A stretch of DNA of 64,000 nt from Bythopirellula sp. (GTDB taxonomy: Bacteria; Planctomycetota; Planctomycetia; Pirellulales; Lacipirellulaceae), in contig OZ244170.1 of the NCBI GenBank assembly GCA_965216565.1, forward strand, positions 448,001 to 512,000. Reading direction: 5' to 3'. The notes beneath the pieces are model-generated. The model saw only the letters and a list, made by a program, of their open reading frames with translations, did no database searches and was not told the DNA's origin. The translations under genes were made by a program, and so were the position numbers. Of this stretch, positions 3,430 to 53,378 are shown in pieces. Within the stretch, counting starts at the first letter, position 1. Every line of letters starts with the position of its first letter.

Positions 3430-3864
3430 CTAGAGCAGCAGCGAGGCAATCACTAGTCGGATCGCTATCCCACTAGAAAGGTCCGGACGGCTTTCGGTGC
3501 GGGATTCGAGATGATTGGGCGAAGCGAACGAACGGCAGACCTCGTCAATCGACGCCGCATCAAACTGTTCGCTGAGCGACCAACCAAAACTTAGTTGGCG
3601 GATCTTGTTGGGAGCATCTGAGAGCGCGTGGCACATGCACGATTCGTCGCAAGGGCACTGCGAGGGAGTGGGGCAACGCTCTTCATGGCCGTAGCCGGAA
3701 GACGCCGGTGACAAATCCTGGGAGGTTGAGCACTCGCAACGAAAGACACTCTCACATCGATCCGGTGTAACTGAGGCCTGGGCGACGTTCGCTGTACCCA
3801 TGCATAGCATGGGGCAGAACAGTACCCGCAGCACGATCAGAGAAACGACGATGTGGTGGAACAT
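3430..3864 (-). CDS. Cys-rich putative leader/arrest peptide L1 heading czcBA
   Basis: 144 aa; hydrophobic N-terminus, CPCDESCMCH cluster, ends IRLVIASLLL-stop; same architecture as four other operon-leading ORFs. Confidence 0.7.
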   Translation of the reverse strand: MFHHIVVSLIVLRVLFCPMLCMGTANVAQASVTPDRCESVFRCECSTSQDLSPASSGYGHEERCPTPSQCPCDESCMCHALSDAPNKIRQLSFGWSLSEQFDAASIDEVCRSFASPNHLESRTESRPDLSSGIAIRLVIASLLL

Positions 3865-4180
3865 GGAAAATTACCGGTGAAAACTGCCTTTACCCATTCC
3901 ATTATACTATACCTATCTTGCCGAGGGGACAAGACTGGCCCCAGCAGCCGCTCCCTAGCTAAAAATCGGGAAGAATGCCTGCTTTCGCGGATCCGGAGAC
4001 GGTCGCCAAGGAGCGTTGCATGCAGTGATCTCCATTGAATGACCAGCTGGTAATGCCGTCTTGCAGCGTACCTACATTTGGCTTGGCGAATGCAATAGAC
4101 AGACCTTGGTCTTCATAGTTCAATGACGATTTTGTCGAGTTTTGGAACGAGTGCCACGCCGAATGGGAAGTAGGTTTGAG

Positions 4181-6358
4181 TTAGCGAAGCAATCGCAAGC
4201 CATTGAAGACGACCACGAGCGAAGCGCCCATGTCAGCGGCAATCGCAGCCCACAGCGAAGAATAGCCCCCAAAAGTTAGCAGCACGAACAATGCTTTTAC
4301 GCAGAGAGAAAAGGTGATGTTTTGCCGAATGATTGCCAAAGTACGACGCGAATGGTGAATCAACCAAGGGAGTTTGGCGAGGTCATCTGACATCAAAGCA
4401 ATATCAGCCGTTTCGATCGCAGCATCAGTACCTACAGCACCCATGGCAATTCCCAGTGAGGCACGGGCTAAGGCGGGAGCGTCATTGACACCATCGCCAA
4501 TCATACCAACGTGCTCGAATCTCTCGACAAGGTTTTCTACGGCGTCAACTTTGTTCTCGGGTAGTAATTCTGCATGTACCTCATCGATACCCGCTTCGGA
4601 AGCAATCTTGTCTGCTGTGCCTTGGTTGTCACCGGTCAGCATGACGATGCTTTCAACGCCAGCTTCATGGAGTTCCGACAAGGTTTGCCTGACCGTAGGT
4701 CGTAGTGCATCCGCAAGTGAAATGAAGCCACAAACATGATCGTCGTTACCTACAACTACTATGGAACGCCCTGCTTCTTGCAACGTTTGGAGTTGATGGT
4801 GAATATCAGGAGTCTCTTGGCCGCGCTGTTCCAGATATCGATGCGATCCGAGCCAAAACAGCTTACCACCAACGAGCCCTTGAGCTCCCTTGCCCTGGAT
4901 GATTTCAAAGTTGCCAGCGGGCGGGATGGAAAGGTATCGTTCATTTGCTTCGGCAACAATTGCACGTGCCAGTGGATGGTTGGAGTGCGATTCTAGTGCC
5001 GCCGCTCTCTCCAATAATTCAGTTTCGTTATGTCCGCTAAGCGGTCGGATATCAACGACTTTCGGATTACCATGTGTCAATGTACCAGTCTTGTCCATAG
5101 CAATCGCTCGCAGCTTTGCTGGTGCCTCCACGAAGACGCCACCTTTGATGAGCACGCCGTTCTTGGCTGCTGCCGCCAGTGCGGAAACGATTGAGACGGG
5201 CGTCGAAATCACCAAGGCACACGGGCATGCGATCACTAAGAGCACCAGTGACCGGTAGAGCCACACCGACCACTCGCCGGAAAACAGTAGAGGTGGAACC
5301 AGTAATACCAAAGCAGCTAAGGCCATGACGCAAGGCGTATAATACCGGGCGAATTTTTCGACCCATTGCTCAGACGGGGAGCGTTTTGACTGGGCTTCGC
5401 CAACCATTTTAATGATGCGGGCTAGCGTGGTGTCCTCGGCCTGCCTAGTGGAGTTGATTTCTAGCACGCCATCCCCGTTGATCGTTCCAGCAAATACTTC
5501 CGCATCTTTTTCCTTTTGAGCAGGTACGCTTTCTCCTGTGATGGGTGCCTGATTAACCGCACTAGAACCCTTCAGAACAAGGCCATCCAACGGAATCTTC
5601 TCGCCTGGACGAACAGTAAACGTTGTGCCCACATGCACTTCGGCCACTGCAACTTCTTTTTCGTTTCCGTGTTCGTCACGTACGCGAGCCATTTGTGGAG
5701 CCAGATCCATCAGGGCAGCAATCGCTCGACGCGCGCGGCCAACACTCCATGACTCAAGAAGTAGCGAGACTGAAAACAGGAACGCAACCGTAGCGGCTTC
5801 TAGCCATTCACCTATAGCAGCTGCACCAATTACTGCTACGGTCATCAATAGATTCATGTCTGGTCGTAAAGTCTTTGCTGCCCGCCATGCCTTGGGAAGC
5901 ACGTACCATACGCCCGACAAGATGCCGATGAGATAAGCCGCGACCGACACGACCGGTACGGAGTGTGCGATTCCCATTCCTTCAGAACCCAAGCCTGATT
6001 GCAGACTTCCACCAATCCAGACAGCAAGTACGAAACCCAGCAGGCCGAACAAACCGCTAGCTGATGTCAGGCATATGCGTCCGTAATTTTGCCAGAATCC
6101 GTGGTCGAGAGAATCGTTAGCACGATCACTCCACATTTCTGCATGCATACCAGTGCGTGAGACATAATCGATTACGTCTGTAGCAGAGACCGCAACACCT
6201 TCAGTATCAACACTCAGCTTGGCATTCAGTAGATCAAAGGATAGACGTTCAACTTCTCCAACGAGCGGTCCCAGCTTATCTCTAAGTAAAGATATCTCTT
6301 CGGCGCAATGCATGCCGTCAATTCGAAATTCAAGTCTGTTCGCCATCTTATAATCCAT
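4181..6358 (-). CDS. cadA: Heavy-metal translocating P1B-type ATPase (Cd/Zn/Pb, CadA/ZntA-like)
   Basis: N-terminal HMA GMHCAEE, TGES, CPC (IACPCAL), DKTGTLT, SNHPLA, GDGVNDAP. Confidence 0.93.
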   Translation of the reverse strand: MDYKMANRLEFRIDGMHCAEEISLLRDKLGPLVGEVERLSFDLLNAKLSVDTEGVAVSATDVIDYVSRTGMHAEMWSDRANDSLDHGFWQNYGRICLTSASGLFGLLGFVLAVWIGGSLQSGLGSEGMGIAHSVPVVSVAAYLIGILSGVWYVLPKAWRAAKTLRPDMNLLMTVAVIGAAAIGEWLEAATVAFLFSVSLLLESWSVGRARRAIAALMDLAPQMARVRDEHGNEKEVAVAEVHVGTTFTVRPGEKIPLDGLVLKGSSAVNQAPITGESVPAQKEKDAEVFAGTINGDGVLEINSTRQAEDTTLARIIKMVGEAQSKRSPSEQWVEKFARYYTPCVMALAALVLLVPPLLFSGEWSVWLYRSLVLLVIACPCALVISTPVSIVSALAAAAKNGVLIKGGVFVEAPAKLRAIAMDKTGTLTHGNPKVVDIRPLSGHNETELLERAAALESHSNHPLARAIVAEANERYLSIPPAGNFEIIQGKGAQGLVGGKLFWLGSHRYLEQRGQETPDIHHQLQTLQEAGRSIVVVGNDDHVCGFISLADALRPTVRQTLSELHEAGVESIVMLTGDNQGTADKIASEAGIDEVHAELLPENKVDAVENLVERFEHVGMIGDGVNDAPALARASLGIAMGAVGTDAAIETADIALMSDDLAKLPWLIHHSRRTLAIIRQNITFSLCVKALFVLLTFGGYSSLWAAIAADMGASLVVVFNGLRLLR

Positions 6359-6533
6359 GAATGATTTGTGAGTGTTGTCAAAGTAACGACCGTAAGTGCA
6401 TATAGTAAAGTCGTAACCTAAAAAGCCATATTAAGAAGATGAGGTCGTCATTTCGATGTTGCCGTGAGTAAGTATCCATCACTTAACATACGTGGTGTAG
6501 ATGTTGATATATATCCTTTCTGCTATGAGTCTC

Positions 6534-11109: not shown

Positions 11110-11643
11110 TTACGCTACTGACCGTTGCTGGCCTCCCTCGGGAATCCGATCCACAGGTTTTCCGGCCTGAGACAACCGACATTGCAAGAGGTCAAGCAAT
11201 CTGTGGAGCACTCCCCCGTAGACAATCACGTCTCTAGAAGTTGCCATACTTAGCCACTGGTCGATGGCACTCGGCGGTTCTGGTGAATAGATCCACACTG
11301 AGCGATTGGCATCGATAAGTCGCAACTTGGCTGAGGTAAGCCAGGCACTTTCGTCGTGTTGATTGTCACTTAGAAGTACTAACTCGGGACTGTGGCGAAG
11401 CATTTTGCCTGCCAACTCAGTCGCACTCTCAGCCCTGAAGACGGCAACACCGAGAAGTTCCAGTAAATGGGCAATGGGAGCGTACGCTTCGTCACGGAAC
11501 TCCACGATCACTACGGAACTAAATCTGTTGACTAACTGGGCCGATTGTTGACGCGGTGCTCTGTGTATTCGACTCGAACGTGTGTAACAAAGGCTTCGAA
11601 TATGTGCTTCGTATCCTCGTAAAGCGCAGGGATTTGCACGCAT
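11110..11643 (-). CDS. Degenerate (pseudo-)receiver domain protein
   Basis: CAGGAG RBS before ATG 11643; CheY-like pattern VVIVE..AVFRAESATE..PELVLL..SAWLTSAKLR; paralog of 51999..52757. Confidence 0.65.
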   Translation of the reverse strand: MRANPCALRGYEAHIRSLCYTRSSRIHRAPRQQSAQLVNRFSSVVIVEFRDEAYAPIAHLLELLGVAVFRAESATELAGKMLRHSPELVLLSDNQHDESAWLTSAKLRLIDANRSVWIYSPEPPSAIDQWLSMATSRDVIVYGGVLHRLLDLLQCRLSQAGKPVDRIPEGGQQRSVA

Positions 11644-11824
11644 GACGGACTCCTGTTGAATTAATTGAATAGCGAGGGCCGATACCCGTTCGGGGTAATC
11701 GGTCGCTAAAGGACCGCTTTGGTCACCGCGCAAGACAAAGCAGCGGAGGCGGCACATCAAAGGCGAGAAGGCTTGCGAACTTGAGCGCTTTCGGGCAACT
11801 CAGTCGAAACCAAGCAGCAGCCGC

Positions 11825-12277
11825 TCAGAGCAAGAAACGGCAGAAGAGGATACAGGGTTGCTGCACGCTGCTGGAGTTGTTTTGCGTGTCAGTGAATGTG
11901 AACTGACGTAACAATTCGAGATGGTTCGATGCGGTACTTGAGACGGAACAGACATCGACATGCAATAGTTCTGAGAGGGAACGTGTCTGCTGCTGCGAGA
12001 ACGGTAATCCGCTCAGCGGTAGCTTATGACATTTGCAGGTGCAGGGCTGCCCTTGTGAGTCTGTGCAATTACAAGAGCAGCAAATAGAATCGGCATATTT
12101 TGATGTTTTGGAGTGGGATTCACATTGGCAATGTGATGTGTCGCTAGATTGACAGGGACAATCTAGCGTACAGATACAGATTGAAGCGAACACGACATGG
12201 CAAGGCATGCAAAGTGCGAGGCATACAGCCACGATAGTACGGATTGAGGCACGCTTTTTAAACATGTTATCGTTCAC
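11825..12277 (-). CDS. Cys-rich putative leader/arrest peptide L2
   Basis: Hydrophobic N-terminus, ICICTLDCPC...CCSCNC...PCTCKCH, ends QPCILFCRFLL-stop. Confidence 0.78.
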   Translation of the reverse strand: MNDNMFKKRASIRTIVAVCLALCMPCHVVFASICICTLDCPCQSSDTSHCQCESHSKTSKYADSICCSCNCTDSQGQPCTCKCHKLPLSGLPFSQQQTRSLSELLHVDVCSVSSTASNHLELLRQFTFTDTQNNSSSVQQPCILFCRFLL

Positions 12278-20887: not shown

Positions 20888-21054
20888 GATGGAACACTCC
20901 CATTCGTGTCTAGCGCAGGTAAACGCCTTAAGACTCGAACGATGTAGGTGGTAACGCTGACGAAAAATAGTCAGGTGCAGGAAATAACCACAGTAAAGAC
21001 GGGACCTGGAAAGACCTCGCGTAATAACGCAAGGTTACTTGTCCCGCGAGCGGT

Positions 21055-21513
21055 TCAAATCAAGAAGACGCAATTAGCGAGGTGCGAGCGCACCGGTAGC
21101 GCATGTGGAGAATGAGCTACGGAGAAGGTGAGAGTCGATTCGCCGACAGGGAACAATGAAACGAATGTGGCGTCGAGAACAGGTGTCAGGGCGAACAGAA
21201 AGTCCAACTGAATCAGATCACTGCCGTCCCGCATTTCGGGTGCAGGCCACATGCACTGAGCATGGGTGCATGTATGTGGAGCGGGATGGGTCGGATCTGT
21301 GGGATGGTGAGCATGTTCCCCACATGAGTGGTTTGTTTCCAAGTGCAGTGGGACTTGCTCATTTTCTTCTTCATGACAATCTTGACCACCAACTTCATGG
21401 TGGTGATGACCGCAGACGGCATCAATAAGACTGTGTCCCTCATGCGCGCAACATCCCAGTGTCGCATGGACCAGGATTGCAGCAGCTGTGATTAGGTGGA
21501 CGTACGTACGCAT
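21055..21513 (-). CDS. His/Cys-rich putative leader/arrest peptide L3
   Basis: MRTYVHLITAAAILVHATLGCCAHEGH..HHHH..HTCTHAQC, ends VRSHLANCVFLI-stop. Confidence 0.8.
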   Translation of the reverse strand: MRTYVHLITAAAILVHATLGCCAHEGHSLIDAVCGHHHHEVGGQDCHEEENEQVPLHLETNHSCGEHAHHPTDPTHPAPHTCTHAQCMWPAPEMRDGSDLIQLDFLFALTPVLDATFVSLFPVGESTLTFSVAHSPHALPVRSHLANCVFLI

Positions 21514-27878: not shown

Positions 27879-29297
27879 CTAATTTGCTGGAGATGACAGG
27901 CTATTGTTGAGCAACAATCCTTCGATCTGTACATAGCTTTGCCAAAGCGACCCAAGTGCATCGAGATACACTAGATTAGTTTGTGAATAGGTTTGCTGAG
28001 CAGCCAACACGTCGAGGTAGCCTACTTCTCCCTGTTTGTAACCTCTCTGTACGAGTTCAAACGTGCGTTGCGCGCGGGGGAGAATGTCGCTCGCGTAGCT
28101 CGTTGCTGTTACGTGGGCATCGGTATACTGCCGGAAGGCATCGGCAAGCCGACGATTGAGACTCAACTCAACACGATCAACGTTTCGGACTGCTTCACTA
28201 ACTTCGGCCTGTGCTTGACGAATGCCCCCTTGGTTGCGGTTCCAAAGCGGTAAGGGTATTCCTACTTGAACGCCAGCAATCGTGTCACTAGTGGCGTCGT
28301 CATACTGCACACTTAACTGAGTACTGATGTCAGGCACTGCCTCAACACAAGCACGATTCAAGGCTCTGCGAGTTCGTTCAACTTCGGCCATTGCCGCTGC
28401 AATCTCAGGACTCTCGGTTTGCAGTCGAGCTAACTGCTGCTCCCAATCAAGTGCTTCTGGAAGCTGACTCACGTCACCCTCAAGATACTGAATGGGCAAT
28501 CCTGGGCTGACGACCACCGTTGATAGCCGTCGCCAAGCTTGAGCTTGACCATTCTGGGCGGTACGTAAAAGGACCTGAGCATTTTGCTGCTGCACTTCGG
28601 TCTGTAACATCCCAGCCACTGTACTCTCTTCCGCCTCAACAAGAGCTTTCGAAGCCTCAGCTGCCTCAGTGGTCAGCCGAACCAACTCGGCAGCTAACTC
28701 AACTCGGCGTTGGGCTAGCAAGGCCTCGTAGTAACCCTGTCTGACATCGGTAAATACTCTTCTTTGAACGGCTGCCAGTTCTTGTTCGGCACGACTGATT
28801 TCTGCGGAAACTACAGCCCGATTACGCTGAAGCTTCTTTGCCGTAATAAAATTTTGCCCAACAAAACCGCCTTGTTGCCCGGCTGCACCGTCGTTGCCAA
28901 TTTCACCAGCGACGTACCCTACTGTTGGATTTGGTGCCAGGCCAACCTGTACCCATTTGCCACGTAGCGCACGCACACGGGCTGCGGACTGTGAGATGGC
29001 AGGGCTATTAGCAAGCGCCATCTGCTCAAGTGCATCTAGATTTAGTCCGCCCGCAGGTGGAAGAGGTTGGGGTGAATCGGACCCTACCGTGCCTTCAAGT
29101 GATTCAGCGACAGACGGAGGTTGGACAAGCTCAGGTAAAACTGACTCTTCAAAGTCCACTTGGGTAATCGTGGATTTTTCATCAGCAGCATTTGCAGCTG
29201 AAGATGCTTCTGCCGGTGAATTTTTTGAAAGCGGGCTAGACGCACAGCCTCCCACAAGCACAAGTACAACAACGAAGCATATTGTTTGTTTGGCCAT
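27879..29297 (-). CDS. TolC/CzcC-family outer-membrane factor
   Basis: Lipobox GGC, PNPTVGY, GIPLPLWNRNQG, GYKQGEVGYLDVLAAQ. Confidence 0.9.
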   Translation of the reverse strand: MAKQTICFVVVLVLVGGCASSPLSKNSPAEASSAANAADEKSTITQVDFEESVLPELVQPPSVAESLEGTVGSDSPQPLPPAGGLNLDALEQMALANSPAISQSAARVRALRGKWVQVGLAPNPTVGYVAGEIGNDGAAGQQGGFVGQNFITAKKLQRNRAVVSAEISRAEQELAAVQRRVFTDVRQGYYEALLAQRRVELAAELVRLTTEAAEASKALVEAEESTVAGMLQTEVQQQNAQVLLRTAQNGQAQAWRRLSTVVVSPGLPIQYLEGDVSQLPEALDWEQQLARLQTESPEIAAAMAEVERTRRALNRACVEAVPDISTQLSVQYDDATSDTIAGVQVGIPLPLWNRNQGGIRQAQAEVSEAVRNVDRVELSLNRRLADAFRQYTDAHVTATSYASDILPRAQRTFELVQRGYKQGEVGYLDVLAAQQTYSQTNLVYLDALGSLWQSYVQIEGLLLNNSLSSPAN

Positions 29298-29390
29298 CCT
29301 TGGCCTCCTTACTTATTCTACTGACTGCTACATACCTACCCATTTTATCGGTTGTTATGTATAGCATGCGTTAGTGAGTGACTTTGATAT

Positions 29391-30533
29391 TTAAGCATGC
29401 CGTAGTGCTGGGACGATCTCTGTACGCGACGCGTGCCAGCCCGGTGCCAGCCCTGCTAGGATGCCAACTGCAATCGCCACTACTACTCCCTGAATGGCTA
29501 ACACAAGTGACGGTTCAAACGCGATGGTCACTCCCTCGGCCGCAACCGACATACCTGATGACGACAATAGCAGTGCACTTCCGACGACACCCAGAATTCC
29601 ACCCAAAGTGCTAAGCAATAAACTCTCAGTAAGCACTAAGCCAAATACTCGCATGGGGCGTAGTCCGAGAGTTTGTAAGACGGCATGCTCTTTGATGCGA
29701 TCTTGTACCGACATCACCGTGGTCGTAGCGACCAGTGACAGCACTAATCCCACGCAAGCGTAACCGAGCCAGTGCACGAAACCAATCAACTCTGCCAAGT
29801 CTGCAAGTGTATCGGCCTGAAACATTCCCTTGGTTCGAGTGGTGGTTCCGACTGGGCCGGAGCGAAACTCTTGGTCGATCTGCTTTGCCAATGCATCAGG
29901 GTCGGCTGTGTCATTGAGGTGCACTTCGAGTTGAGTGACCGTACCAACGTCGTTTGCGCCGCGTGCCCGCTGCAGGAAATCAAGTTGAGTGAAGATGAGA
30001 TTGTTTTCAGCAGCCGTCGCGGATTGAAATACGCCCCGTACAACGACGGAAACATCACCGATAGTGAATTTGTCACCTACACTCAGTTGGCGCCTCGTGG
30101 CCACATCAACGCCGACCAGGGCAGCATCGTCTTGGCTGGCGAAAGAGGAGAAGTCGCCAGACTGAAGGTCAATGTCACGCCAAGCTTTCAGCTTTTCTGG
30201 AGGCATGCCTTGGAAAACAATGGCATCCAGGCTAGCTCGACAATTGTTGGTAAATACCTTGATGGGAACCACGTCCTTTACGCCGGACATTTTTTCGATA
30301 GTTCGCGAGTAGTCTTGTGGCATCCGACTGCTTTGTGGGCAAAAGCGGTTTTCTTGAAAGACGATCAGCGTTCGCCCTGCATCCTCTCCCGCCGTTAGAG
30401 CCAGCAATCCTTGTTGCACAGCACCGATAAAGCAGAACACTAGCAGCGCTACCGCTGTGCCGCTCACAGTTAGTAGCGTGCGTGCTCGATGCCGCCAGAG
30501 ACTTTTGAAGACGTAGGGAATGAACTTAAACAT
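29391..30533 (-). CDS. FtsX/MacB-family ABC permease
   Basis: [23 protein letters not shown], 4 TM. Confidence 0.88.
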
Positions 30534-30535
30534 AG

Positions 30536-31249
30536 TTAGGCAGTCCTGACAATTTGTGCGGTGTGAAGTTCTTCGCCATTTTCCATGAGCCGACCACGCT
30601 CCAAACGAATTTGCCGCTTGGCTCGCGCTCCGGCTTCGACGTCGTGTGTGACCATCAACAGGGTCATCCCCAGCTCGTTGTTTACACGACTCAATAGGGT
30701 GAGAATCTGCTCGGTGGTCTCATCGTCGAGACTACCAGTGGGTTCATCAGCAACGACAACGGTTGGGTTGGTAACAATCGCGCGTGCGATGCCGACTCGC
30801 TGCTCCTGACCACCTGACATTTGGCGCGGATAATGAGTTGCCCTAGAAGTCAGGTCGACCGCCTCCATTGCGATCTCAACTCGCTTACGTCTCTCAGCAG
30901 CCGACATAGACAGCAGCAATAGGGGTAATTCAACGTTTTCGTAAGCTGTTAATACAGGAATGAGGTTGTGTGTCTGAAACACATATCCGATGTGGCGGGC
31001 TCGCCAGTCGGCTAGTTTGCCGCGAGAAAGCTGCGTGATGTCGGTGCCAGCCACGACAATCTCGCCGGAAGTGACAACGTCGATTCCAGCAATGAGATTT
31101 AGCAACGTACTCTTGCCCGATCCACTGGCCCCCATCAACGAGGCATAGTCACCCTCATCTACTGTGAGACTCACTCCATCCAGAGGACGAATAGTTTCCT
31201 CGCCATTGGCGTATTCTTTTGTGACATTCATGACTTCGACTAAGGGCAT
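30536..31249 (-). CDS. LolD/MacB-type ABC ATPase
   Basis: [31 protein letters not shown]; start taken as MPLVEV (31249) after GAGG. Confidence 0.92.
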
Positions 31250-31268
31250 GATAGTGTTCCTCTTCGTG

Positions 31269-32900
31269 TTAGCTGTCTGAGCCGCCCGCTTGAGCGGTGC
31301 GGGCAGCGGGTTGGCCGCCCTGAGAGTTCCAGTTGCCACCGGAAAGGGTACGGTCCTCGCCAGTCACCCGCACACGGGTGCCTTCAGTAATTGATTCTCG
31401 ACCGGCAACAATTAACTTATCAGTTGGTTGAAGTCCGCTAGTAATTTCCACGAGGCCATCGTCAGTTGCACCTCGGCCAACTGCTACCGTCTTTCGTTTC
31501 GCAAGGCTCGCTGTAAGATCCGCTACCCAAACCACGGCCCCTCCCTCGGAGTTTGATACAAGAGACTGTGGTACGAATAGTCGCAAGGGCGAATCACCTT
31601 CATCTTCTTGGACCACAGGTGAGGGTGGCGCAAGAAAGGTTACCTTCCCCAGCATTTCTGGTTTGATCACCTCGGGCGGTTCGTTAACTGCAACTTTCAC
31701 TTGCAATGTATTCTTCTGAATGTCTGCGAAAGTCGTAACTGAAATTACCTCGCCTGCAATGGGAGCTGGCAGAGCGGCGGTCTCGATGAGTGCTGGTTGC
31801 CCAAGTTGCACTTGCGGCACGTCTTCCAAACGGACATCGACCCGAACCTGTAGACTTTGCGGGTCGTAAAGTCCTACAACTGCACTTGAGCCTTGCGATG
31901 AGTGTGGGTTAATACCTGAAAGTCGTTGGCCTGGTCGAGCTTCTAGGCTGAGTACTCGTCCAGCAATCGGTGATCGCACCGTCATCCGCTCAAGCTGTAG
32001 CTCAGCAGCTTCAACAGCCAGACGTGTTTGTTCGGCTCTTGACTCGGCAACGGCTAGATTCGCCTCAGCTTCGCCGACAGCACGTGTCTCATCAGTTAAA
32101 AGTTTGAGTTTTTCAGCCAAAGCGTCCCGCTTTTGTTCCAGCGAGGTGAGTTGCATCTTAAGGCTTGGCTCACGAGCGATAAGCTCTTTGACGGCATTTA
32201 TCGCATTTGCCAACTCTCCGCGGGCCTCACGAAGTACTCTTCCTATGACCGCATCCCCAGCAAGCTCTTTACGACGAACATTCTCTTCCGCTAACGATTG
32301 TTTTGTTTTCGCCGCTTCTAGGGCGAAGGGAAGGTTGCCAAGTGTCAGCTTCGTTTCGGCAAGCAGTGCTCCGGCATCGGCAAGTGCAGCTTGCAGGCTG
32401 ACCGGCTTGGCTAGATTAACTTTTGCGGCTGCAAATGCAGCTTCGGCCCGTCTTACCTCAGCTTGCTGCAACTTGTGTTTTGCCTTAGCCTCTGCCAGTA
32501 CTAACTTCGCATCAGTTTCGATCAACAATGCAACCGGTTCGCCCTTTTCGACCTTTTGACCTTCGATGACTAGCATCTCACGGATGACGCCAGGTGCTAG
32601 TGCTGAGGCCACTACCGGAGTTGGTCTGGGCTCTACCCATCCTGCCGCTTGAAACAGTGGCGTACCTTCCTGCTTAATTTCAGCACGACTTACGACAACG
32701 GGAGTGATCGTAATCGATTGTGCCGGCAAGAAACTATCGCGAGCGGCCCAGGCAAACAAACTTAGGAAACCGGCGAAAATTCCGAAGGGCAAGACATATC
32801 TGGTGAGCCAAGATCGCTTGACCTTCACGGCCTGCTTCTCCGGTTGGCTTCGATCGACCGCCAACTGACTAAGATCAAGTTGTGAAGAATTATCTGACAT
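31269..32900 (-). CDS. Efflux periplasmic adaptor (HlyD/MacA-like) with long alpha-hairpin
   Basis: [36 protein letters not shown]. Confidence 0.88.
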
Positions 32901-32929
32901 GTTTAACTAAAGCCTTTCCCAGCGTTCGC

Positions 32930-34099
32930 TTATATCGCCTTAATTGCTTCTACAACAGGAAGTCGCATCGCTTTGAGAGCAGGCGGCAGCGCGCCGACAA
33001 CGCCTAATAAAGCTGCCACACCACACGCAACTGCAATGCCAACACTGTCGACTGTGAGCATAAACGCCCCCATGGTGAAGCGAACTGCGGCACCATCAAT
33101 TAGCCAAAGCCCCACTACGCACGCGGCTAATGCTCCTGCACACGCCAACAGCGTCGCCTCTTGGACAAGTGTGAGCAAGATGGCACGGCGTCGAAAGCCG
33201 AGTGCCTGGAGTGTTGCCAATTCTCGTACGCGGCCTACAACTGCGCCATACATTGTGTTGAGCCCCGCAAATATCCCAGAGCCAGCAACCAGCGCCACTA
33301 CCACCCAGCCCAACATACGAACGGGCTTGTAGTGTTTTTGCAGAGATGCGTAGTAGACACTTTCTGACACTGCTTTTAATTCCAAGTCGACCCGCTCGCG
33401 GCAAAACAAATCGACGTCCGCAACGCGTTCGGGCGAATCCATACTGACTGCCACTAGGCTTAAATCTTGTCGTTTCAGCGTCGTTTGCAGCTCTGCCAGC
33501 GGAGCCCAGATCTCAGACTCAAATGCTGAACCAGCTGCCGTGAAGAGGCCACTAATCGTCCAAGTTCGTCCGTCAAAGGTTACCTGCTGACCGACTGCAA
33601 GATCTTCTTTGCTGGCCCCTAGCTTTGAATGTGCCAAGCGACCAACAATCACCTCGCCAGCTTGTGGCCAAGCACCCTCAGAGAGTTGCACTTGACCTCG
33701 CACTAGCGGTGCAGTGGTTGTGACGCCACGCACCAAGCCCATTCCGGGTTCTGTCATGTTTGAAGTCGTAATTCGAGTACCTAAGTAAAGCTCAGGTGAC
33801 ACGTATTCGACGCCATGCTGACGACGCACTCCATCAACGCTCGCCGAAACCAAAGCCGGTGTTCGCCCAGGGATAGACGAGTTTTCGATATCAGCCCCAG
33901 AGGAAAGCGCATAAATCAAGACGACATTCGGATTACCCGTGGCAGCCAACGACTTTTCGAGTCCGCGGATAAATCCCACGACCACTAACACCAGCAGCAC
34001 CACGATGGTTAGTCCACCGAGAGTGAGCACACTACGTGACGGTCGACGAAATAAATTTCGTACGCCGTAGTCCCAAGGTAATAGTCGTTGGCCGAGCAT
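32930..34099 (-). CDS. FtsX/MacB-family ABC permease
   Basis: RNLFRRPSRS, GSAFESEIW, RVRELATLQALGF; GGAG before ATG 34099. Confidence 0.88.
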   Translation of the reverse strand: MLGQRLLPWDYGVRNLFRRPSRSVLTLGGLTIVVLLVLVVVGFIRGLEKSLAATGNPNVVLIYALSSGADIENSSIPGRTPALVSASVDGVRRQHGVEYVSPELYLGTRITTSNMTEPGMGLVRGVTTTAPLVRGQVQLSEGAWPQAGEVIVGRLAHSKLGASKEDLAVGQQVTFDGRTWTISGLFTAAGSAFESEIWAPLAELQTTLKRQDLSLVAVSMDSPERVADVDLFCRERVDLELKAVSESVYYASLQKHYKPVRMLGWVVVALVAGSGIFAGLNTMYGAVVGRVRELATLQALGFRRRAILLTLVQEATLLACAGALAACVVGLWLIDGAAVRFTMGAFMLTVDSVGIAVACGVAALLGVVGALPPALKAMRLPVVEAIKAI

Positions 34100-34137
34100 T
34101 GATTTATCTCCAAAGTTGATCGCCAATAGCGACAACT

Positions 34138-34674
34138 CTAATTGCGGATGAAGACGCCCTTGGCGAGCATCACGAAGTTACCACTTTTGTCTTTCTTCGC
34201 TGTCCCTTTGACAACGACCATGTCCGATTCTTTTAGTCCGAATAATTTGCGGGAGTCGACCGGCACGAGCTGCCCTTGAGCGTCAACTACTTTCACCAGC
34301 GTCGTACATTCGAGACGCTCCGTAGCGCAGCAGTCGCCCATGCACAATTCACCTTCTTCGCCAGAATCCTCGCCTTCTGCGACAACCGACATGGAAGCAT
34401 CAAGTAGCGTAAAGGCTGCACGACCATTGATCCATGGATTTGCCGCCCCACCTATACGTCCTACTAAAACTAACGGCTCTCCGTCTTCACTCGATTCACG
34501 GGCCGCGATCACGCCAACAGCACCATCTGGTTCGTCGGATAGTGTGTATTGTGTAGCGTCAATGTTTGTTGTCGGGACCGGCACATTCGAGGCAGTTCCT
34601 GACGCAGACCCACAACCAGTGCTGACCGCAATTGCAGAGAGCGACAATAATAAAGCTATAACATCGATCTTCAT
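34138..34674 (-). CDS. Lipoprotein with Cys cluster (OB-fold-like)
   Basis: Lipobox STGC; VLVGRIGG..AAFTLLD..CMGDCCATERLEC..VVVKG. Confidence 0.75.
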   Translation of the reverse strand: MKIDVIALLLSLSAIAVSTGCGSASGTASNVPVPTTNIDATQYTLSDEPDGAVGVIAARESSEDGEPLVLVGRIGGAANPWINGRAAFTLLDASMSVVAEGEDSGEEGELCMGDCCATERLECTTLVKVVDAQGQLVPVDSRKLFGLKESDMVVVKGTAKKDKSGNFVMLAKGVFIRN

Positions 34675-35372
34675 CTTTGGATTCCTCCTGTATTTACTTG
34701 CTGTGCTTGTTGATGGTTCTTAGGAGCAAGTTTGGTGGCCCACTTAATGGCTAATTTGCCGTGAGGGCCAGTGACCGCTATTGGGCGCTCCTTAGCTTTC
34801 GCAACTGCGTTAACCACGAGCCAAGGCGAGACAACTACGTCTGGCCGCGTCTCGACGAACAGAGTTTCACTCTTCATGTCGACCCTCACTTTCGTAACAC
34901 CTTTAAGTGCATAGAGCTGAGCGGCAATCTTCTTCGCACATCCCTTGCAATGCAGATTGTCGATAACGATCGACAGAGGTGCTTTGATTTGCTGGGCCTG
35001 CTGACCTGCATTAGGGTCAACTTGAGGGCGAATTAATGTGTACGTTGCCTCGGATGTAACCAGCTTAGTGGGACCACCATCGCCCTGCTCAACTGCGTGC
35101 CATAGCTGTCCTAGCATTGCGGCGTTGGGCTGCGGCAGTGAAACGGTAACTGTGTGCGTACTAATGTCGATGCCTACCTCTTTCACACCCCGGGCGGCAT
35201 ACAACTGGCCAGAGACCTTCCGGGCACACCCCTTACAGCACATTCCTTCAGCAAGAATCTGTATTTGATGGTTGCCCGCCTGGGGTGTTGCTGCTTTCAC
35301 TAAGGACTGACTTGTATGACTAATGGCCAAGGCCACGAAGAGCGTAGCAATGATTGTGCACTTCCTTCGCAT
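34671..35372 (-). CDS. Exported tandem heavy-metal-associated (HMA) domain protein
   Basis: Signal peptide; GMCCKGC and NLHCKGC repeats. Confidence 0.88.
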   Translation of the reverse strand: MRRKCTIIATLFVALAISHTSQSLVKAATPQAGNHQIQILAEGMCCKGCARKVSGQLYAARGVKEVGIDISTHTVTVSLPQPNAAMLGQLWHAVEQGDGGPTKLVTSEATYTLIRPQVDPNAGQQAQQIKAPLSIVIDNLHCKGCAKKIAAQLYALKGVTKVRVDMKSETLFVETRPDVVVSPWLVVNAVAKAKERPIAVTGPHGKLAIKWATKLAPKNHQQAQQVNTGGIQR

Positions 35373-35543
35373 GGTTTTCTCCTCTTCTCAATTTATGGGT
35401 TGGCGAAGCACTGACTGCCTCCACGGAGTGAGTCAGTCAGCAAGTTTGGAAATGATCAACAGGAACTCCAGAAGTGACTCGCTATAGCAAGCCGAACTTA
35501 AGGAAGTCATGAGACGCGAGCAGAAGGCTCGCAAGAAGAGAAG

Positions 35544-36053
35544 TCAGATTAAGAAGCGGCAGAGCTCAGCGCAGCGCTGCACGGCAGATTCAGTCCATAC
35601 ATCAGCGGTGGACGCATAGTCGCATGACGCTGTCCGATCCGCACCAATTGCTGCAACAACAATCGAAGCATCGCTTTGCGTAAGGTTCCGGAGCAACAAC
35701 TCAATAGGCTCCGATGGGCCCTTCGGCAACTGCAGAGGTTGCGCGGGCTGGTGACACCAGCAATCTGGCGGACAGGGGCACGACTTGTCCTGGTCGTCTA
35801 TGCAGTCCCGTTCTGGAGAGCGAACACTAGCCTCTCGTGCTGATGTACATGCATGAGAGTGAGAGCATGATTTTGCCTCTGAGTGGGAATGCTCGCTACA
35901 CGCTGTCTCTGCAGAACAAGTGGCAGCACATCCACCAAGATGACACAGAAGATGCAAATCCTGAACGCTAGGCAATAACGCAAGCACGACCCCCAGAAGG
36001 GCTGTAATTCGCTTCGAGTTATTGTAACGGCTCAGCACGAGCTGTGACTCCAT
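35544..36053 (-). CDS. Cys/His-rich putative leader/arrest peptide L4
   Basis: Hydrophobic segment, CHLGGCAATC..CSHSHAC..CPCPPDCWCH, ends QRCAELCRFLI-stop. Confidence 0.8.
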   Translation of the reverse strand: MESQLVLSRYNNSKRITALLGVVLALLPSVQDLHLLCHLGGCAATCSAETACSEHSHSEAKSCSHSHACTSAREASVRSPERDCIDDQDKSCPCPPDCWCHQPAQPLQLPKGPSEPIELLLRNLTQSDASIVVAAIGADRTASCDYASTADVWTESAVQRCAELCRFLI

Positions 36054-37454: not shown

Positions 37455-37460
37455 CAGAAA

Positions 37461-41474: not shown

Positions 41475-41566
41475 TGAGTTTTTGGGTTAGAAAGATGCGT
41501 AAGTTGCCAGTTTGCACTACTATCTGAGAACAAAGTGCCTGGAGCACTCTTCTTGTCGAGATCGTA

Positions 41567-43969: not shown

Positions 43970-44100
43970 CCTGTAAACTCCCTGAAGTTACTTCCGCTGG
44001 AAGAATGCTCTACTATTGCAAGGCGCGTCGTATCATCAATTATAGACCACTCATACGCACCACAAGCAAGAGAGTTCTCTATTCTAATCGCCAGCACTGA

Positions 44101-44397
44101 TCACATTCCATTAGGCCGCTTTTTCGGCTCACTGCTTAAACCAGTAGCACAAATTACATCCACTTCATTGACAAGTCGCTGAACATGCATGACATCTCTT
44201 AATACGGTTTGTAGCATCTGTTTTAGGTGGAACGTAGATACACATCCTCGAAGAGTGAGAGTGCCGTTAGAGTAGCGCCACGTGACCTTGTGAAAGTGGA
44301 ATGCATAGGAACAGCTATCGATACGCTCTTGGATGCGTATGTGGACCTCTTGACTCACGATACTTTCGTCCATCGCCATGGCCATAGTCTTTAACAC
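44101..44397 (-). CDS. BON-domain-like small protein
   Basis: NGTLTLRGCVSTFHLKQ..Q..L..V..LVNEVDV. Confidence 0.65.
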   Translation of the reverse strand: MLKTMAMAMDESIVSQEVHIRIQERIDSCSYAFHFHKVTWRYSNGTLTLRGCVSTFHLKQMLQTVLRDVMHVQRLVNEVDVICATGLSSEPKKRPNGM

Positions 44398-44649
44398 TCA
44401 CCAATCGGTTTCATGATACCTCTTGCAGCCGAACGCCATACTCGTCCTGGCATTGAATAATCGAGCCACTTAGGCTGAAGTTGCGCTGTACAGTCGACAG
44501 AATGGATGCTCAGCGAACGAAACTTTCTCGTGAGAATAAATCTAGTCTGCTCAACAGTATTGGATGCGGCAGCTTGCTCGTTTCTTCACCCGCAGAAGAG
44601 AAGATTGTGGCGGGTTCTAAGAGTTTTGTACGATCTGTCGTGGAGTTAG

Positions 44650-45477: not shown

Positions 45478-45478
45478 A

Positions 45479-46087
45479 TTAAGGCTCCCAACCAAGTTCT
45501 ACAAGCTGTTGCTTCAATTCTCGACGAGCCCGATTCAATCGAGAGCCGACTGTTCCCTCAGGAATTTCTAGTGCGTGTGCAATTTCATTGTATGACAAAC
45601 CTTCTACCTCTCGGAGCAAGAACGCAGATCTTAGATCTGGGTCTAATTGGCCAAGCGCTTGTTCTAATAAATCCTTATCATCAAAACTTTCGTGGCTAGC
45701 TGGAGAACGATCCATCGGTTCCTGTTGAAGTAGCTGTACTCTTGACCGTTTCGATCTACGAAGGTGTTGTAGGGCTTCATTTACTGCAACTCGATATATC
45801 CAAGTGCCGAATTGAGATCTTCCCGAAAACTGGCTGATCTTTCTAAACGCCTGCAGGAATACTTGCTGGGTGACATCCGATGCGTCCTGAATGCCAACCA
45901 TGCGGACCATGAGGCGATACACATTCTGATGCGACACTTCGTATAGCCGACGTTGTGCAACCGGATCGCCCTCCTGGCAAGCCTTAACGACCTCTACGGC
46001 CTCCTCCATGTCAGCCCATGCCAAGGTCCCTTCACCACTATTAGATGCGGGGAGAGGCTTGCTTCTTCGTGTAGATGCAGATTTCAT
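45479..46087 (-). CDS. ECF-subfamily RNA polymerase sigma factor
   Basis: DASDVTQQVF, FGTWIYRVAVN, LSYNEIA..IPEGTVGSRLNRAR; exact start uncertain (46087 or 46009). Confidence 0.92.
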   Translation of the reverse strand: MKSASTRRSKPLPASNSGEGTLAWADMEEAVEVVKACQEGDPVAQRRLYEVSHQNVYRLMVRMVGIQDASDVTQQVFLQAFRKISQFSGRSQFGTWIYRVAVNEALQHLRRSKRSRVQLLQQEPMDRSPASHESFDDKDLLEQALGQLDPDLRSAFLLREVEGLSYNEIAHALEIPEGTVGSRLNRARRELKQQLVELGWEP

Positions 46088-46673
46088 GCAGATTGCCTCC
46101 CGAAAAACGGGAAGTCGGAGGATCTTACGCGTGCACAACCGGTGGCGTATCAATTATTCACCCACCAGTCGGTTCCTCCAGTTTACCTTATGCAGCGATA
46201 GAGGGTAGCCGGATTCGGTATCTAGCGACCTAGTAGTCGCTCTTGTTTTCCTTATCTGGTATCACAGCGTTTCTTCTCATCTAGAACGTGGAAGTGGGCA
46301 ATTGTGACCGTTTTGACAGGGTCGTGAAGAAACCGTCCTAAGGTTGCATCTAAGAGTGCGTATTAGAGTGGATTTGTAGTCTGTGATGGGATTACCCATG
46401 AAACCGTCTGATTGAGAGTAGGCGTCACGTATTGGTCTATGACATCCAAAGACTTTTACTGTTGAAGACGTCTGATAGAGCGTGGTCATTCTTGCTGCAG
46501 TGATATCAGGCTCCACCTGGACAGGGCCACAGCCGAACACTTCGTCCTCATGCGCCTGCTAGAAATCGGGGCTGGAACGACTATTGGAGAGGCAACCACG
46601 GCTCACGAACACGATTGAGCCTTGACTACTAATCGAGAGTGTCGCTAGTCGACGCACTTGGTTGATTGCGTGT

Positions 46674-47907: not shown

Positions 47908-48573
47908 ATGTGTGGTCTAATTGAATTTACGAGTCGAATAAAAGAAAAAATGGAGAGCGCCAATCGCGAGCCACACTGGGGACCGGGCGAAGCCCAACGC
48001 TACATGAACGAGGTAGCTGTGCGTCGCGATCGTTTTGAGAAAATTGCTTTCCAATACAACGAGAACTTGATTCAGTCTCGTATTGAAACACTCGCCAATT
48101 ACTTTATCAATGCTAACGTTACAAAGACCGAGCCGCCTGGGCATAGTGAGTGCTGGTTCGGATATTGCGAACGATTTCCGTCAAACACGAGACTCGCCTT
48201 TTCTATTGAGCACGACGTACGTTTCGAGAATGTGGCCATCTGCTACGACGTATCCATGACGCCCTTGTTCATTCGCTTCAACGAGCATGACAGGCTGACA
48301 GTGGCACTTACTGAAGTCAACGAAGATCTAGTTTGTAAATGGGTCGAAGAGCGAATTATGGAGTTTCTCGACGCCTACCTACGCATTGACCGTGGCGCCG
48401 AAGATTTCGAGGATGAGCCAGTCATCGATCCCGTCTGTGGAATGCGCATTAGTAGGTCTTCCGCCGCAAATACTGATTCATACTGTGGGCATCCCTACTT
48501 CTTTTGCTCTGAGCAATGTCGCAAAAAGTTCGAGGAGGATCCTACACATTACGCAACAATTAGAACGTTGTAG
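47908..48573 (+). CDS. Coiled-coil + C-terminal YHS domain protein
   Basis: DPVCGM..YFFCSEQC..F..DP.HY; paralog of 36420..37091. Confidence 0.82.
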   Translation: MCGLIEFTSRIKEKMESANREPHWGPGEAQRYMNEVAVRRDRFEKIAFQYNENLIQSRIETLANYFINANVTKTEPPGHSECWFGYCERFPSNTRLAFSIEHDVRFENVAICYDVSMTPLFIRFNEHDRLTVALTEVNEDLVCKWVEERIMEFLDAYLRIDRGAEDFEDEPVIDPVCGMRISRSSAANTDSYCGHPYFFCSEQCRKKFEEDPTHYATIRTL

Positions 48574-50960: not shown

Positions 50961-51768
50961 GGAACTCAGACGATGGATCGATCCAGCCCATGTGCAACTG
51001 AGCGTAGCTCGCCAATGCGAGTTGCTCGGTCTACCTCGCTCGACGTGGTACTACGAACCTCTGGGCGAAACGACCGAAAACCTGAAACTGATGCGCGCCA
51101 TCGACGAGCAGTATCTCAAGACACCGTTTTACGGCAGCCGAAAGATGTCAGAAGTGTTTGGCGTCAATCGCAAGCGAATTCAGCGTCTGATGAGACTGAT
51201 GGGAATCGAAGCGATTTATCCAAAGCATCGCACCACTTGTCCAGGTGCTGGACACAAGATTTACCCGTATTTACTGCGAAATGTGGCAATTATTCGTCCC
51301 AATCAGGTTTGGAGTACCGATATCACCTACCTGCCGATGCAACAAGGTTTTTTGTATCTGGTCGCGGTGATGGATTGGTACAGCCGGTTCGTGCTGAGCT
51401 GGCGGCTTTCCAACACGCTCACAATCGATTTTTGTTTAGAGGCGCTCGACGAGGCGTTGTCTACCAAGCAACCCGAGATATTTAACAGCGACCAAGGCAG
51501 TCAATTCACCGCGACAGAGTTTACCAATCGACTCTCTACACGCGGTGTATCGATTAGCATGGACGGACGTGGCAGGGCACTAGACAACGTGTTTGTCGAA
51601 CGTCTGTGGCGTACGGTGAAGTACGAGGAGGTATATCTGAAAGACTATGGTGATGGCTGGGAAGCGAAAGCAAGCCTCACGGCCTACTTCGAATTCTATT
51701 GCCACGAACGCATTCACCAGGCGCTGGGATATCGCACGCCTGCAGATGTTTATGGCAAGCGAAACTGA
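50935..51768 (+). CDS. IS3 transposase OrfB (DDE integrase core), entered at the A9 tract
   Basis: Open from the A9 tract: ..KELRRWIDPAHVQLSVARQCELL..WSTDITY..NSDQGSQF..DNVFVERLWRTVKYE. Confidence 0.9.
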   Translation, partial: KKNLPSSAKELRRWIDPAHVQLSVARQCELLGLPRSTWYYEPLGETTENLKLMRAIDEQYLKTPFYGSRKMSEVFGVNRKRIQRLMRLMGIEAIYPKHRTTCPGAGHKIYPYLLRNVAIIRPNQVWSTDITYLPMQQGFLYLVAVMDWYSRFVLSWRLSNTLTIDFCLEALDEALSTKQPEIFNSDQGSQFTATEFTNRLSTRGVSISMDGRGRALDNVFVERLWRTVKYEEVYLKDYGDGWEAKASLTAYFEFYCHERIHQALGYRTPADVYGKRN

Positions 51769-51998: not shown

Positions 51999-52757
51999 TC
52001 ACTCCTGGCCATCATCTCTTGTGAATTGAGATGTCGAATCGTGCCGATCGTTGCAATTGTCTATCAGACTAACGATCAATGCAGACAGCGAGAGCAAATC
52101 GCCCCGGTATTCTAGCAATGCCTCAAGATCCAAGAAGCTAGCGAGCCCACGATCATAGCTAGAGGATCGAGATTGATAGAGCCAAACGCGAATATTACGA
52201 TCGACCAGCCGCAGCTTGTCAGCCATGAGCCAACCGCTGTAATCGAGCAATTGGACATTGGCCACGAGTAGTACCGGTCCCTTCTTAACGCACAAGTTTA
52301 ACGCCTCGGTCGCCGACTTGGCACGAATAACACGCACGCCTCCGTTGGCAATGTCAGTTGCTATGCGTGCGAACACCTCGTCGCGATGCTCAACTAGCAG
52401 GACAGTAGGCAACGACACTGATTGGTAAGCATTTTCTTCAAGTGTGGAAGCGTAAGACCCATCCAATCGAGCAGCGTCATTCGGTGCATCAGCTAGTGAA
52501 TGCAGACGCTGACAATGACAATCCGACATGTGTGCCGCACCATTGCCCGTTGTGCGTAGCAACTGCTCCGCTCTGGTCAACAGATCGGTACCGGCGCGAT
52601 TTTTGGCAGCTAACGAGCCATCAACGTTTTCATACACCCTGAAACTACTGCGACAGTGGCCACACACTAACTCGTCGTTGATATATTGTGACCGCATCGT
52701 TATAGGGCGACCGCAAACCGGGCAATCGACCATTACATATGCACTTTGCAGAATCAT
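51999..52757 (-). CDS. Zinc-ribbon + degenerate receiver domain protein
   Basis: CPVCG..CGHC at the N-terminus; C-terminal VLLVEHRDE..VIRAKSATEA..SGWLMADKLR, paralogous to 11110..11643. Confidence 0.72.
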   Translation of the reverse strand: MILQSAYVMVDCPVCGRPITMRSQYINDELVCGHCRSSFRVYENVDGSLAAKNRAGTDLLTRAEQLLRTTGNGAAHMSDCHCQRLHSLADAPNDAARLDGSYASTLEENAYQSVSLPTVLLVEHRDEVFARIATDIANGGVRVIRAKSATEALNLCVKKGPVLLVANVQLLDYSGWLMADKLRLVDRNIRVWLYQSRSSSYDRGLASFLDLEALLEYRGDLLSLSALIVSLIDNCNDRHDSTSQFTRDDGQE

Positions 52758-52913
52758 CCTTCTTTCCTCCATGCCAGCCGCTCACGCGGCGGAGGCAAGA
52801 TGCCATAGGCATCTAGCACGGTAAAAAGTGACGCAGAACCTTGAATATTCAACGCGTCCTAAGAGCACCAATAGCCCGTGGATTGACAATCACAAGCAGG
52901 ATGACAGGAGAGA

Positions 52914-53378
52914 TTAGAGCTGAAAGCGACAAAGTTGGACGCAGCGTTCAGAACCGCCCGTCGTGAAGTTAGCTACTAACTTTTCAAGAGAATGTTGCGG
53001 CGCATTTACGCAATTAGTCGTTGAATCGCTGTGTAACTCAACGACTAGCAGATCGTTCTCCATGGACGGACCGGTCAACGCTGGGTCGACAGCATCAGGT
53101 GCCGGCATTTTGCAGCATCCGCAGGGACATTGGCACGGTCTTGAATTCGAATCTGACGAATTCGAATTACAGCACGACGGCGTTTGGCTGTTTCCGCTGC
53201 TGCACGGACTCCACTCCCGTTGCGAGTGGGAATCCTGCCACAAACCGGCTGCCGCTAGATTTGCACGCGTTTCAGTTACACGGCAGCAGCAGGATGCCAC
53301 CACCGACTGCTGTACTGGCAACAGTAAGATTGCCAGTAGTGCTAGAGTGTTCGAAGTGTGTGAGGTGAACAGGTTCAT
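52914..53378 (-). CDS. Cys-rich putative leader/arrest peptide L5
   Basis: LALLAILLLPVQQSVVASCCC..SCC..PCQCPCGCC, ends ERCVQLCRFQL-stop. Confidence 0.8.
   Translation of the reverse strand: MNLFTSHTSNTLALLAILLLPVQQSVVASCCCRVTETRANLAAAGLWQDSHSQREWSPCSSGNSQTPSCCNSNSSDSNSRPCQCPCGCCKMPAPDAVDPALTGPSMENDLLVVELHSDSTTNCVNAPQHSLEKLVANFTTGGSERCVQLCRFQL

Follow-up and report, generated by a model that had tools for sequence, protein, structure and literature searches.

The metal-resistance island in a 64,000-nucleotide (nt) stretch of Bythopirellula sp. DNA (assembly GCA_965216565.1, contig OZ244170.1, positions 448,001 to 512,000; the whole of this stretch is called the window) raises the question of what is done by the small cysteine-rich open reading frames (ORFs) that precede several of its export genes. 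A preliminary description of the DNA had proposed that five such ORFs encode metal-sensing leader peptides that arrest the ribosome through a common C-terminal motif. The five ORFs, all of which lie on the minus strand, were confirmed with the lengths and tails quoted for them, and they belong to a real, unannotated protein family with a remarkable tail that is locked in position relative to the stop codon. The reading that we favour, with a probability of roughly 0.4, is that this is an undescribed family of exported Cys-rich leaders acting in cis, through translational arrest, on the metal-export genes that follow. The five ORFs are as follows.

3430..3864, minus strand: P0001, 144 amino acids (aa); a family member with the Cys-free tail IRLVIASLLL-stop
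11825..12277, minus strand: P0002, 150 aa from GTG or 146 aa from the ATG at 12265; tail PCILFCRFLL-stop
21055..21513, minus strand: P0003, 152 aa, His-rich; partial tail HLANCVFLI-stop
35544..36053, minus strand: P0004, 169 aa from ATG; canonical tail VQRCAELCRFLI-stop
52914..53378, minus strand: P0005, 154 aa; tail ERCVQLCRFQL-stop

All five are members of one family, as a profile of 139 members matches exactly five of the 125 stop-to-stop frames of at least 100 aa in the window, namely P0001 to P0005. The bodies of these proteins, which had been called not alignable by eye, are shown to be homologous by a leave-out profile, built without the five window ORFs and their close relatives, which detects P0004 at E = 4e-50, P0005 at 2.9e-26, P0002 at 2.2e-10, P0001 at 1.1e-7 and P0003 at 3.8e-6. 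The profile alignments of P0001 and P0003 stop ahead of the tail and thus cover the body only, and P0002 is aligned over its full length. The CRFL-type ending ascribed to all five holds in its canonical form, C-x-x-[LF]-C-R-[FY]-x-x-stop, for three of them (P0002, P0004 and P0005); it is partial in P0003 and different in P0001, whose own tail is retained in the relatives P0047 and P0121. With regard to the start codons, the relatives of P0002 begin at the position that corresponds to the ATG at 12265 (the relative P0030 starts with MFKK), and those of P0004 at the position of a GTG at 36038, which would give a protein of 164 aa.

The family had been thought to be deployed five times in the island, and five is the number in the window; two more paralogues are found elsewhere in the genome. 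The sixth paralogue (L006:1501-1980; G000:C1:1389175-1389651) ends in LCRFLI-stop, is followed by a gene with two HMA domains (2xHMA) and a 177-aa gene in an arrangement that resembles the P0004 unit, and has a 302-aa ORF upstream. The seventh member (L137:992-1477; G000:C1:2832929-2833414) is divergent; it combines a signal with a Cys-rich body and a CTCCPESPP cluster, its tail is LRLHALLGVWLN, and the next 3 kb contain no co-oriented ORF of at least 90 aa. No common promoter motif was visible by eye upstream of six paralogues.

A profile search had been suggested as a check of the proposal, and a well-defined family was found by it, concentrated among the sampled genomes in the Planctomycetota order to which the window belongs. 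Among 1.84 billion representative sequences, 159 family proteins were detected at E ≤ 0.001 and 55 at E ≤ 1e-10. The family is present in 60 of 401 genomes of the order and in 26 of 58 genomes of the window's own taxonomic family; a sample across the phylum gave hits in 4 of 401 genomes, the window's own genome being the single solid case. None of the five window ORFs matches a Pfam or NCBIfam model, 150 members compared with Pfam gave no meaningful match to any family, none of the relatives looked up bears a name, and the ESM Atlas returned only clusters of hypothetical proteins. The family is likewise not described in the literature searched on planctomycete Cys-rich efflux proteins, on 'LCRFL' and on arrest peptides of Planctomycetota; the only arrest peptides of this phylum in that literature are those of the LPPP class upstream of secA, in other orders.

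The N-terminal export segment and the Cys clusters noticed in the five ORFs were confirmed for the whole family by composition and alignment. A hydrophobic window of 12 residues is present near the N-terminus of 139 of 147 members and is preceded by a positively charged stretch in 140 of 147. Each protein contains a median of 14 Cys, which make up 8.4% of the residues, and a median of 5 His. Conservation of at least 90% is confined to the Cys that closes the signal helix, the CPCPxxCWC cluster in the centre, one proline, and the tail residues C161, C165 and R166. An AlphaFold2 model based on a 150-sequence alignment shows no globular fold (predicted local distance difference test, pLDDT, 64; predicted template-modelling score, pTM, 0.30), with helices only at residues 8-31 (the signal), 117-126 and 157-168 (the tail). 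A lipoprotein was considered and rejected, as a lipobox-like motif occurs in just 54 of 147 members.

The tail is the most distinctive part of the protein. The pattern C..[LF]CR[FY]xx-stop ends 146 of 160 stored family proteins, which is far beyond chance, and the logo S-[AS]-x-[QED]-R-C-[AV]-x-L-C-R-F-L-[ILAT], which contains no proline, directly abuts the stop codon. In 159 tails the last four positions are R (151/159), F or Y (151/159), a variable residue, and I, L, A, T or V (151/159). Spacing was determined in the 137 of 150 aligned members that have all three anchor Cys, and in all 137 the first tail Cys occupies the ninth position counted back from the C-terminus. The distance from the central Cys to the first tail Cys is held at a median of 61 residues (standard deviation 1.8, range 56-64), compared with a median of 58 (standard deviation 7.3, range 39-94) between the signal-proximal and central Cys, and the signal lies about 120 residues from the tail. 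The linker ahead of the tail includes some 35 positions without any conserved residue or hydrophobic pattern, yet its length is constrained. The tail codons vary synonymously, which indicates that selection acts on the peptide. Selenocysteine insertion or read-through at a TGA that precedes a hairpin was also considered and rejected, since 24 of 80 loci have TAA or TAG (TGA 56, TAA 16, TAG 8).

The genes that follow the five ORFs are, by Pfam annotation, those named in the preliminary description. The downstream units are listed below together with the spacers that separate them from the ORFs; for P0002 and P0005 the spacer is measured to a start supported by a Shine-Dalgarno (SD) sequence.

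1582-3264 and 2-1570, minus strand: P0001 unit, membrane-fusion gene and RND gene (Pfam)
3265..3429, minus strand: P0001 spacer, 165 nt to the membrane-fusion gene
11110-11643, minus strand: P0002 unit, 177-aa receiver-like gene, then MacB and ABC genes (Pfam)
11644..11824, minus strand: P0002 spacer, 181 nt to the SD-supported start of the receiver-like gene
19400-20887 and 16209-19388, minus strand: P0003 unit, membrane-fusion gene and RND gene (Pfam)
20888..21054, minus strand: P0003 spacer, 167 nt to the membrane-fusion gene
27879..35372, minus strand: P0004 unit, HMA, 178-aa protein, MacB, membrane-fusion, ABC ATPase, MacB and OEP (Pfam)
34671-35372, minus strand: exported 2xHMA gene, the first gene after P0004
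35373..35543, minus strand: P0004 spacer, 171 nt to the 2xHMA gene
51999-52757, minus strand: P0005 unit, 252-aa receiver-like gene
52758..52913, minus strand: P0005 spacer, 156 nt to the SD-supported start of the 252-aa gene

The gene order downstream of P0004 is seen again in other genomes. The 178-aa protein of this unit (34138-34674, minus strand) has no Pfam match and is usually encoded between the HMA and MacB genes; it is conserved and uncharacterised. The product following P0005 had been called a Zn-ribbon pseudo-receiver, and matches to a zinc ribbon and to a receiver do occur in it, both below the Pfam thresholds. It is homologous to the receiver-like protein that follows P0002 (41% identity over 83 aa, E = 2e-16). 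The two proteins (11110-11643 and 51999-52757) form a family of their own, in which Response_reg scores below the Pfam cut-off and an output domain could not be recognised. Just past the P0005 unit lies a transposase gene of IS type (rve, HTH_21; 50992-51768, plus strand), whose insertion may have cut off the original downstream genes. An HtrA-type protease gene with PDZ domains (12857-14308, minus strand) stands directly upstream of P0002 and its receiver-like partner, and the same order of HtrA, small ORF and receiver-like gene is found in three further genomes, at the loci L102, L126 and L132.

A tally of downstream genes, likewise proposed as a check, bears out the association with metal export beyond the window. 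Eighty loci were fetched from other genomes of the order, and in 77 of them the ORF ends with the family tail. The scan took in the three nearest co-oriented ORFs downstream (205 proteins in total), after exclusion of L079, which has no downstream DNA, and L113, a duplicate of L111; the genes were called by a simple greedy ORF picker, and individual calls may be wrong. Efflux-type genes (HMA, MacB/FtsX, HlyD-type membrane-fusion, ABC, ACR_tran, OEP, P-type ATPase or CDF) follow the family ORF on the same strand in 63 of 78 loci, or in 60 of 75 if the three tail-less loci are set aside. Among upstream neighbours, a rough local comparison standing in for the background rate, 10 of 59 belong to such families. 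The 15 loci that lack efflux-type genes include five of the P0005 type (L082, L083, L086, L088 and L097), where the next gene in each case encodes a match, about 260 aa long, to the receiver-like protein of the window. Homologues of the window's other genes were found near the ORF as follows.

178-aa protein (34138-34674): 35 of 80 loci
HMA protein: 26 of 80 loci
receiver-like protein: 16 of 80 loci
HtrA: 3 of 80 loci
ECF sigma/anti-sigma pair: 3 of 80 loci

Because the same ORF stands before such varied genes (HMA/MacB/ABC, CusBA-like RND, OEP, P-type ATPase/CDF and receiver-like), a generic regulatory module fits better than a part of one machine.

The ORFs are separated from these genes by long spacers. 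Of 86 loci, 71 have a co-oriented start with SD support, and in these 71 the spacer has a median length of 179 nt (interquartile range 165-197), lies within 140-200 nt in 51, and is never shorter than 100 nt. The spacers are more stably folded than dinucleotide shuffles, with a mean z of -1.81 (25/63 below -2), and coding controls have a mean z of -0.26 (5/63 below -2); the p-value of 1.4e-9 for this difference is overstated because the loci are related. A conserved structure follows the stop codon of P0004.

35533-35543, minus strand: pyrimidine tract between the P0004 stop codon and the hairpin
35516..35532, minus strand: hairpin GCGAGC-CUUCU-GCUCGC, beginning 12 nt past the P0004 stop codon

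In the HMA subgroup this hairpin of 6 bp with a CUUCU loop starts 11-14 nt past the stop codon, behind the pyrimidine tract. Sixteen loci of the HMA type preserve it, and compensatory changes occur among them (pair 51-61: AU in 12, GC in 4); its covariation score of 0.269, against a mean of 0.177 for shuffled alignments, was reached by none of 500 shuffles. In a consensus of the whole spacer (RNAalifold) it is the sole helix that is kept. No intrinsic terminator was found in the P0004 spacer, the helices of receiver-type spacers show no covariation, and the pairing profile past the stop codon is the same as that of a shifted control. There is a modest excess of pyrimidines in the first 10 nt past the stop codon (0.67-0.71, compared with about 0.56). 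The words CTGCGC, TGCGCG and GCGCGC are enriched in spacers (20-31 of 63, compared with 3-15 of 63 coding controls), without a fixed position (standard deviation about 50 nt), and could be RNA or DNA sites. The RND-type spacers share the blocks CTGCGCGC and GTGCTAGCTGCGCGCA at +20 to +65 nt past the stop codon, without covariation (L085, L091, L096, L098, L101, L119 and L120); these could represent an operator, a promoter or a protein-bound RNA.

The ruler-like linker, the stop-locked tail, the variety of downstream genes and the long, structured spacer together suggest a leader that acts in cis. We infer each step of its action as follows. The N-terminal signal would bring the chain into the Sec translocon while it is still being made. 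By the time the last codons are translated, the CPCPxxCWC cluster would be about 70 residues from the peptidyl-transferase centre, which should be enough for exposure in the periplasm, and the 14-residue tail S-A-x-E-R-C-A-x-L-C-R-F-L-I would fill the upper exit tunnel and might slow the final elongation steps or termination at the stop codon. Binding of metal, or disulfide formation, at the exposed Cys/His clusters would alter the pulling force and hence the length of the pause. With its first 10-12 nt covered by the paused ribosome, the structured spacer (about 179 nt) would fold differently or be differently accessible, and this change would determine how strongly the downstream efflux genes are expressed. 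In addition, the exported product may itself bind metal.

A more specific form of this proposal, which we put forward tentatively, is that RCxxLCRFxx-stop is a new, proline-free, stop-adjacent arrest module that, with the 61-residue ruler and the exported Cys cluster, constitutes a membrane-spanning sensor of periplasmic metal, reused before at least four classes of exporter and a receiver-like regulator. A bolder variant would have both tail Cys bind metal within the exit tunnel, so that the ribosome itself would read cytoplasmic metal.

This scheme has its closest precedent in the DUF2946 leaders (PF11162; Bordetella CruR, Rhodobacter CutF and Cupriavidus CzcI), with which the preliminary description had drawn an analogy. 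Both families consist of proteins of 120-170 aa with an export signal, an exported and putatively metal-binding Cys motif, and a conserved C-terminal motif at a fixed distance from it, encoded ahead of metal-homeostasis genes. According to the reports on DUF2946, its hallmarks comprise an export signal, a Cys motif (CXXC or CXXXC) and a C-terminal RAPP or PPP; the spacing between the Cys and C-terminal motifs is conserved within one or two residues; and the gene comes first in metal operons, followed by a long spacer (162 nt for cruR) or by a stem-loop that shields the SD sequence (PMC9426467; PMC9973294; bioRxiv 10.1101/2025.02.05.636593). The 162 nt given there for cruR are comparable to the family median of 179 nt, and the linker of CruR is of conserved, ruler-like length in the same way (PMC9426467). 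CzcI, a DUF2946 member that lacks the proline motif, lies upstream of the czcCBA RND genes (PMC9973294), the position that P0001 and P0003 occupy. The differences are equally clear. The family tail, RCxxLCRFL[ILA]-stop, abuts the stop codon and is not RAPP or PPP; the distance from Cys motif to tail is about 61 residues, compared with 45 in CruR, and there are about 14 Cys, compared with 2-4; and the family was found here in one order of Planctomycetota, whereas DUF2946 occurs mostly in Proteobacteria. PF11162 matched none of the five ORFs (E ≤ 1) and none of 150 members (E ≤ 0.1), and nothing in the whole genome exceeded its cut-off. Since the architectural features are all common to the two but the profile test failed and the proline motif is absent, the family is an analogue of DUF2946 and not a member of it; the analogy therefore stands, with the non-RAPP tail that had been pointed out, and is extended by the fixed-length linker and the structured spacer.

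The family can also be compared with arrest peptides in general. The in-silico criteria for such peptides in PMC10987492 (Fujiwara et al., 2024) are four, and the family shows all of them: an upstream ORF without known function, an N-terminal signal (139/147), a conserved C-terminus (146/160) and a spacer of more than 30 aa. That source also describes arrest with a stop codon in the A site, including a proline-free class, DGMK-stop. The layout of upstream ORF, N-terminal localisation signal, spacer and conserved C-terminal motif is thus shared with SecM, MifM, ApdA/ApdP and the NSP-stop, NAP-stop and DGMK-stop peptides. Unlike the arrest peptides that monitor Sec or YidC, the family precedes metal exporters instead of sec or yidC genes, has an unrelated motif, and is a candidate for arrest. 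The family resembles TnaC in the constant position of its motif relative to the stop codon and in having a long spacer ahead of the regulated gene, but no C-rich Rho-loading signal was seen in it. TnaC is a cytoplasmic tryptophan sensor of 24 aa that ends in proline and acts through termination arrest and Rho-dependent attenuation. To our knowledge, DUF2946 is the only family for which a nascent exported leader is established as a metal sensor, and then only for copper. There is good reason to regard the present family as a candidate for a second class, of convergent origin, of exported leader peptides that sense metal. If this is true, a second, unrelated family with the same architecture would mean that this logic evolved more than once, a proline-free, stop-adjacent motif before RND, MacB-type ABC, P-type ATPase and CDF exporters would widen the range of known arrest sequences, and a compact, cis-acting metal switch would be at hand. 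Even without arrest, the ORFs define an unannotated Cys-rich family that marks metal-resistance islands in Pirellulales.

Several observations weigh against an arrest leader, and most of them suit an ordinary exported metal-binding protein, periplasmic or membrane-tethered, that serves as a metallothionein-like buffer or as a Cu/Zn/Cd chaperone for efflux without any arrest; we consider such a stable protein nearly as likely as the leader. Efflux operons elsewhere do contain genes for small metal-binding proteins of the periplasm, for example CusF in cusCFBA, and the family resembles CusF and exported HMA-domain proteins in that its members are small, exported and encoded beside RND or ABC metal exporters. 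The metal site would be formed by eight conserved Cys, two near the signal, four central and two in the tail helix, and the long spacer and hairpin would only set the ratio of expression between the first gene and the rest; the post-stop hairpin could be an attenuator that raises the first gene over the others, as would suit an abundant structural protein. The content of 8.4% Cys, with a median of 14 Cys and 5 His, the conservation of Cys positions in all three motifs, and in particular the two near-invariant tail Cys (C-x-x-x-C) point to chemistry in the mature protein, and the tail is predicted, from AlphaFold and from the sequence, to be an amphipathic helix with both Cys on one face. The low AlphaFold confidence would also be expected of a metallothionein-like protein, and the co-occurring exported HMA protein (26/80) and 178-aa protein (35/80) suggest a periplasmic metal relay. 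The tail itself is proline-free and resembles no known arrest motif, and two of the five window ORFs, P0001 and P0003, as well as their types, carry other tails. The computational tests of coupling gave no clear signal: masking of a stop-codon footprint in 23 loci did not consistently free the SD sequence (mean rank fraction about 0.42; 7/23 at or below 0.11), the C-over-G skew of Rho loading sites was not seen (median C/G 1.23 past the stop codon and 1.16 within the ORF), and the helices proposed for RND-type spacers show no covariation. Finally, the family gene is not always the first in its unit, since of 79 loci 49 have a co-oriented upstream neighbour and 30 a divergent one; the term 'operon-heading' used for the five ORFs is uncertain for P0001 and P0002, as co-oriented genes lie 316 and about 580 nt ahead of them. 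What a metal-binding protein does not readily explain is that a stretch of 35 residues without conserved residue or hydrophobic pattern keeps its length within about 2 residues, that the tail ends at an identical position in 137 of 137 members, and that the same protein precedes unrelated exporters and also cytoplasmic receiver-like proteins (16/80 loci). In contrast to CusF and exported HMA-domain proteins, moreover, the family has a position-locked tail, no confident fold, and no match to HMA, CusF, metallothionein or any other Pfam model in 150 members.

Two other explanations appear improbable. The tail could be a C-terminal recognition peptide (aromatic-x-hydrophobic-COOH) for the PDZ domains of DegS/HtrA-type or tail-specific proteases, in which case a metal-dependent exposure of the C-terminus would trigger regulated proteolysis and envelope-stress signalling instead of acting on the ribosome. 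PDZ ligands follow the rule of an aromatic-x-hydrophobic sequence at a free C-terminus, and the tails conform to it, with F or Y third from last and I, L, A, T or V last in 151 of 159 each; the exact C-terminal position would then be explained by the need for a free carboxylate. The HtrA-type gene directly upstream of P0002, with its counterparts at L102, L126 and L132, and the ECF sigma/anti-sigma pair in the island (44650-46153) would fit such a pathway, but each has a homologue near the ORF at only 3 of 80 loci, the 14 conserved residues exceed what a PDZ ligand needs, and the length-conserved linker and the long structured spacer are left unexplained. There is a similarly small chance that the spacer is what matters, as an internal promoter with an operator or as a protein-bound RNA, and that the ORF is a co-located accessory gene without a regulatory role. 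The GC-rich words enriched in spacers and the blocks CTGCGCGC and GTGCTAGCTGCGCGCA, whose lack of covariation is expected of a DNA site, are in keeping with this, but the words have no fixed position, the ORF is under strong selection at the peptide level, and no classical metal-responsive regulator was found directly upstream among 59 scanned ORFs, where the only regulators are three IclR-type genes.

The island also contains metal units that lack the small ORF. A third metal RND unit, within 37461-46153 (minus strand), has no family ORF; it comprises a membrane-fusion protein with HMBD and DUF3347 domains (41567-43969) and a 1337-aa RND pump (37461-41474), and is flanked by the ECF sigma and zf-HC2 anti-sigma pair at 44650-46153. 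Next to a MerT/HMA gene (24276-25514) stands a MerR gene (25690-26094) in divergent orientation. Classical regulators thus adjoin the units that lack the small ORF. Three YHS-domain proteins (23899-24279, 36420-37091 and 47908-48573) are spread over the island.

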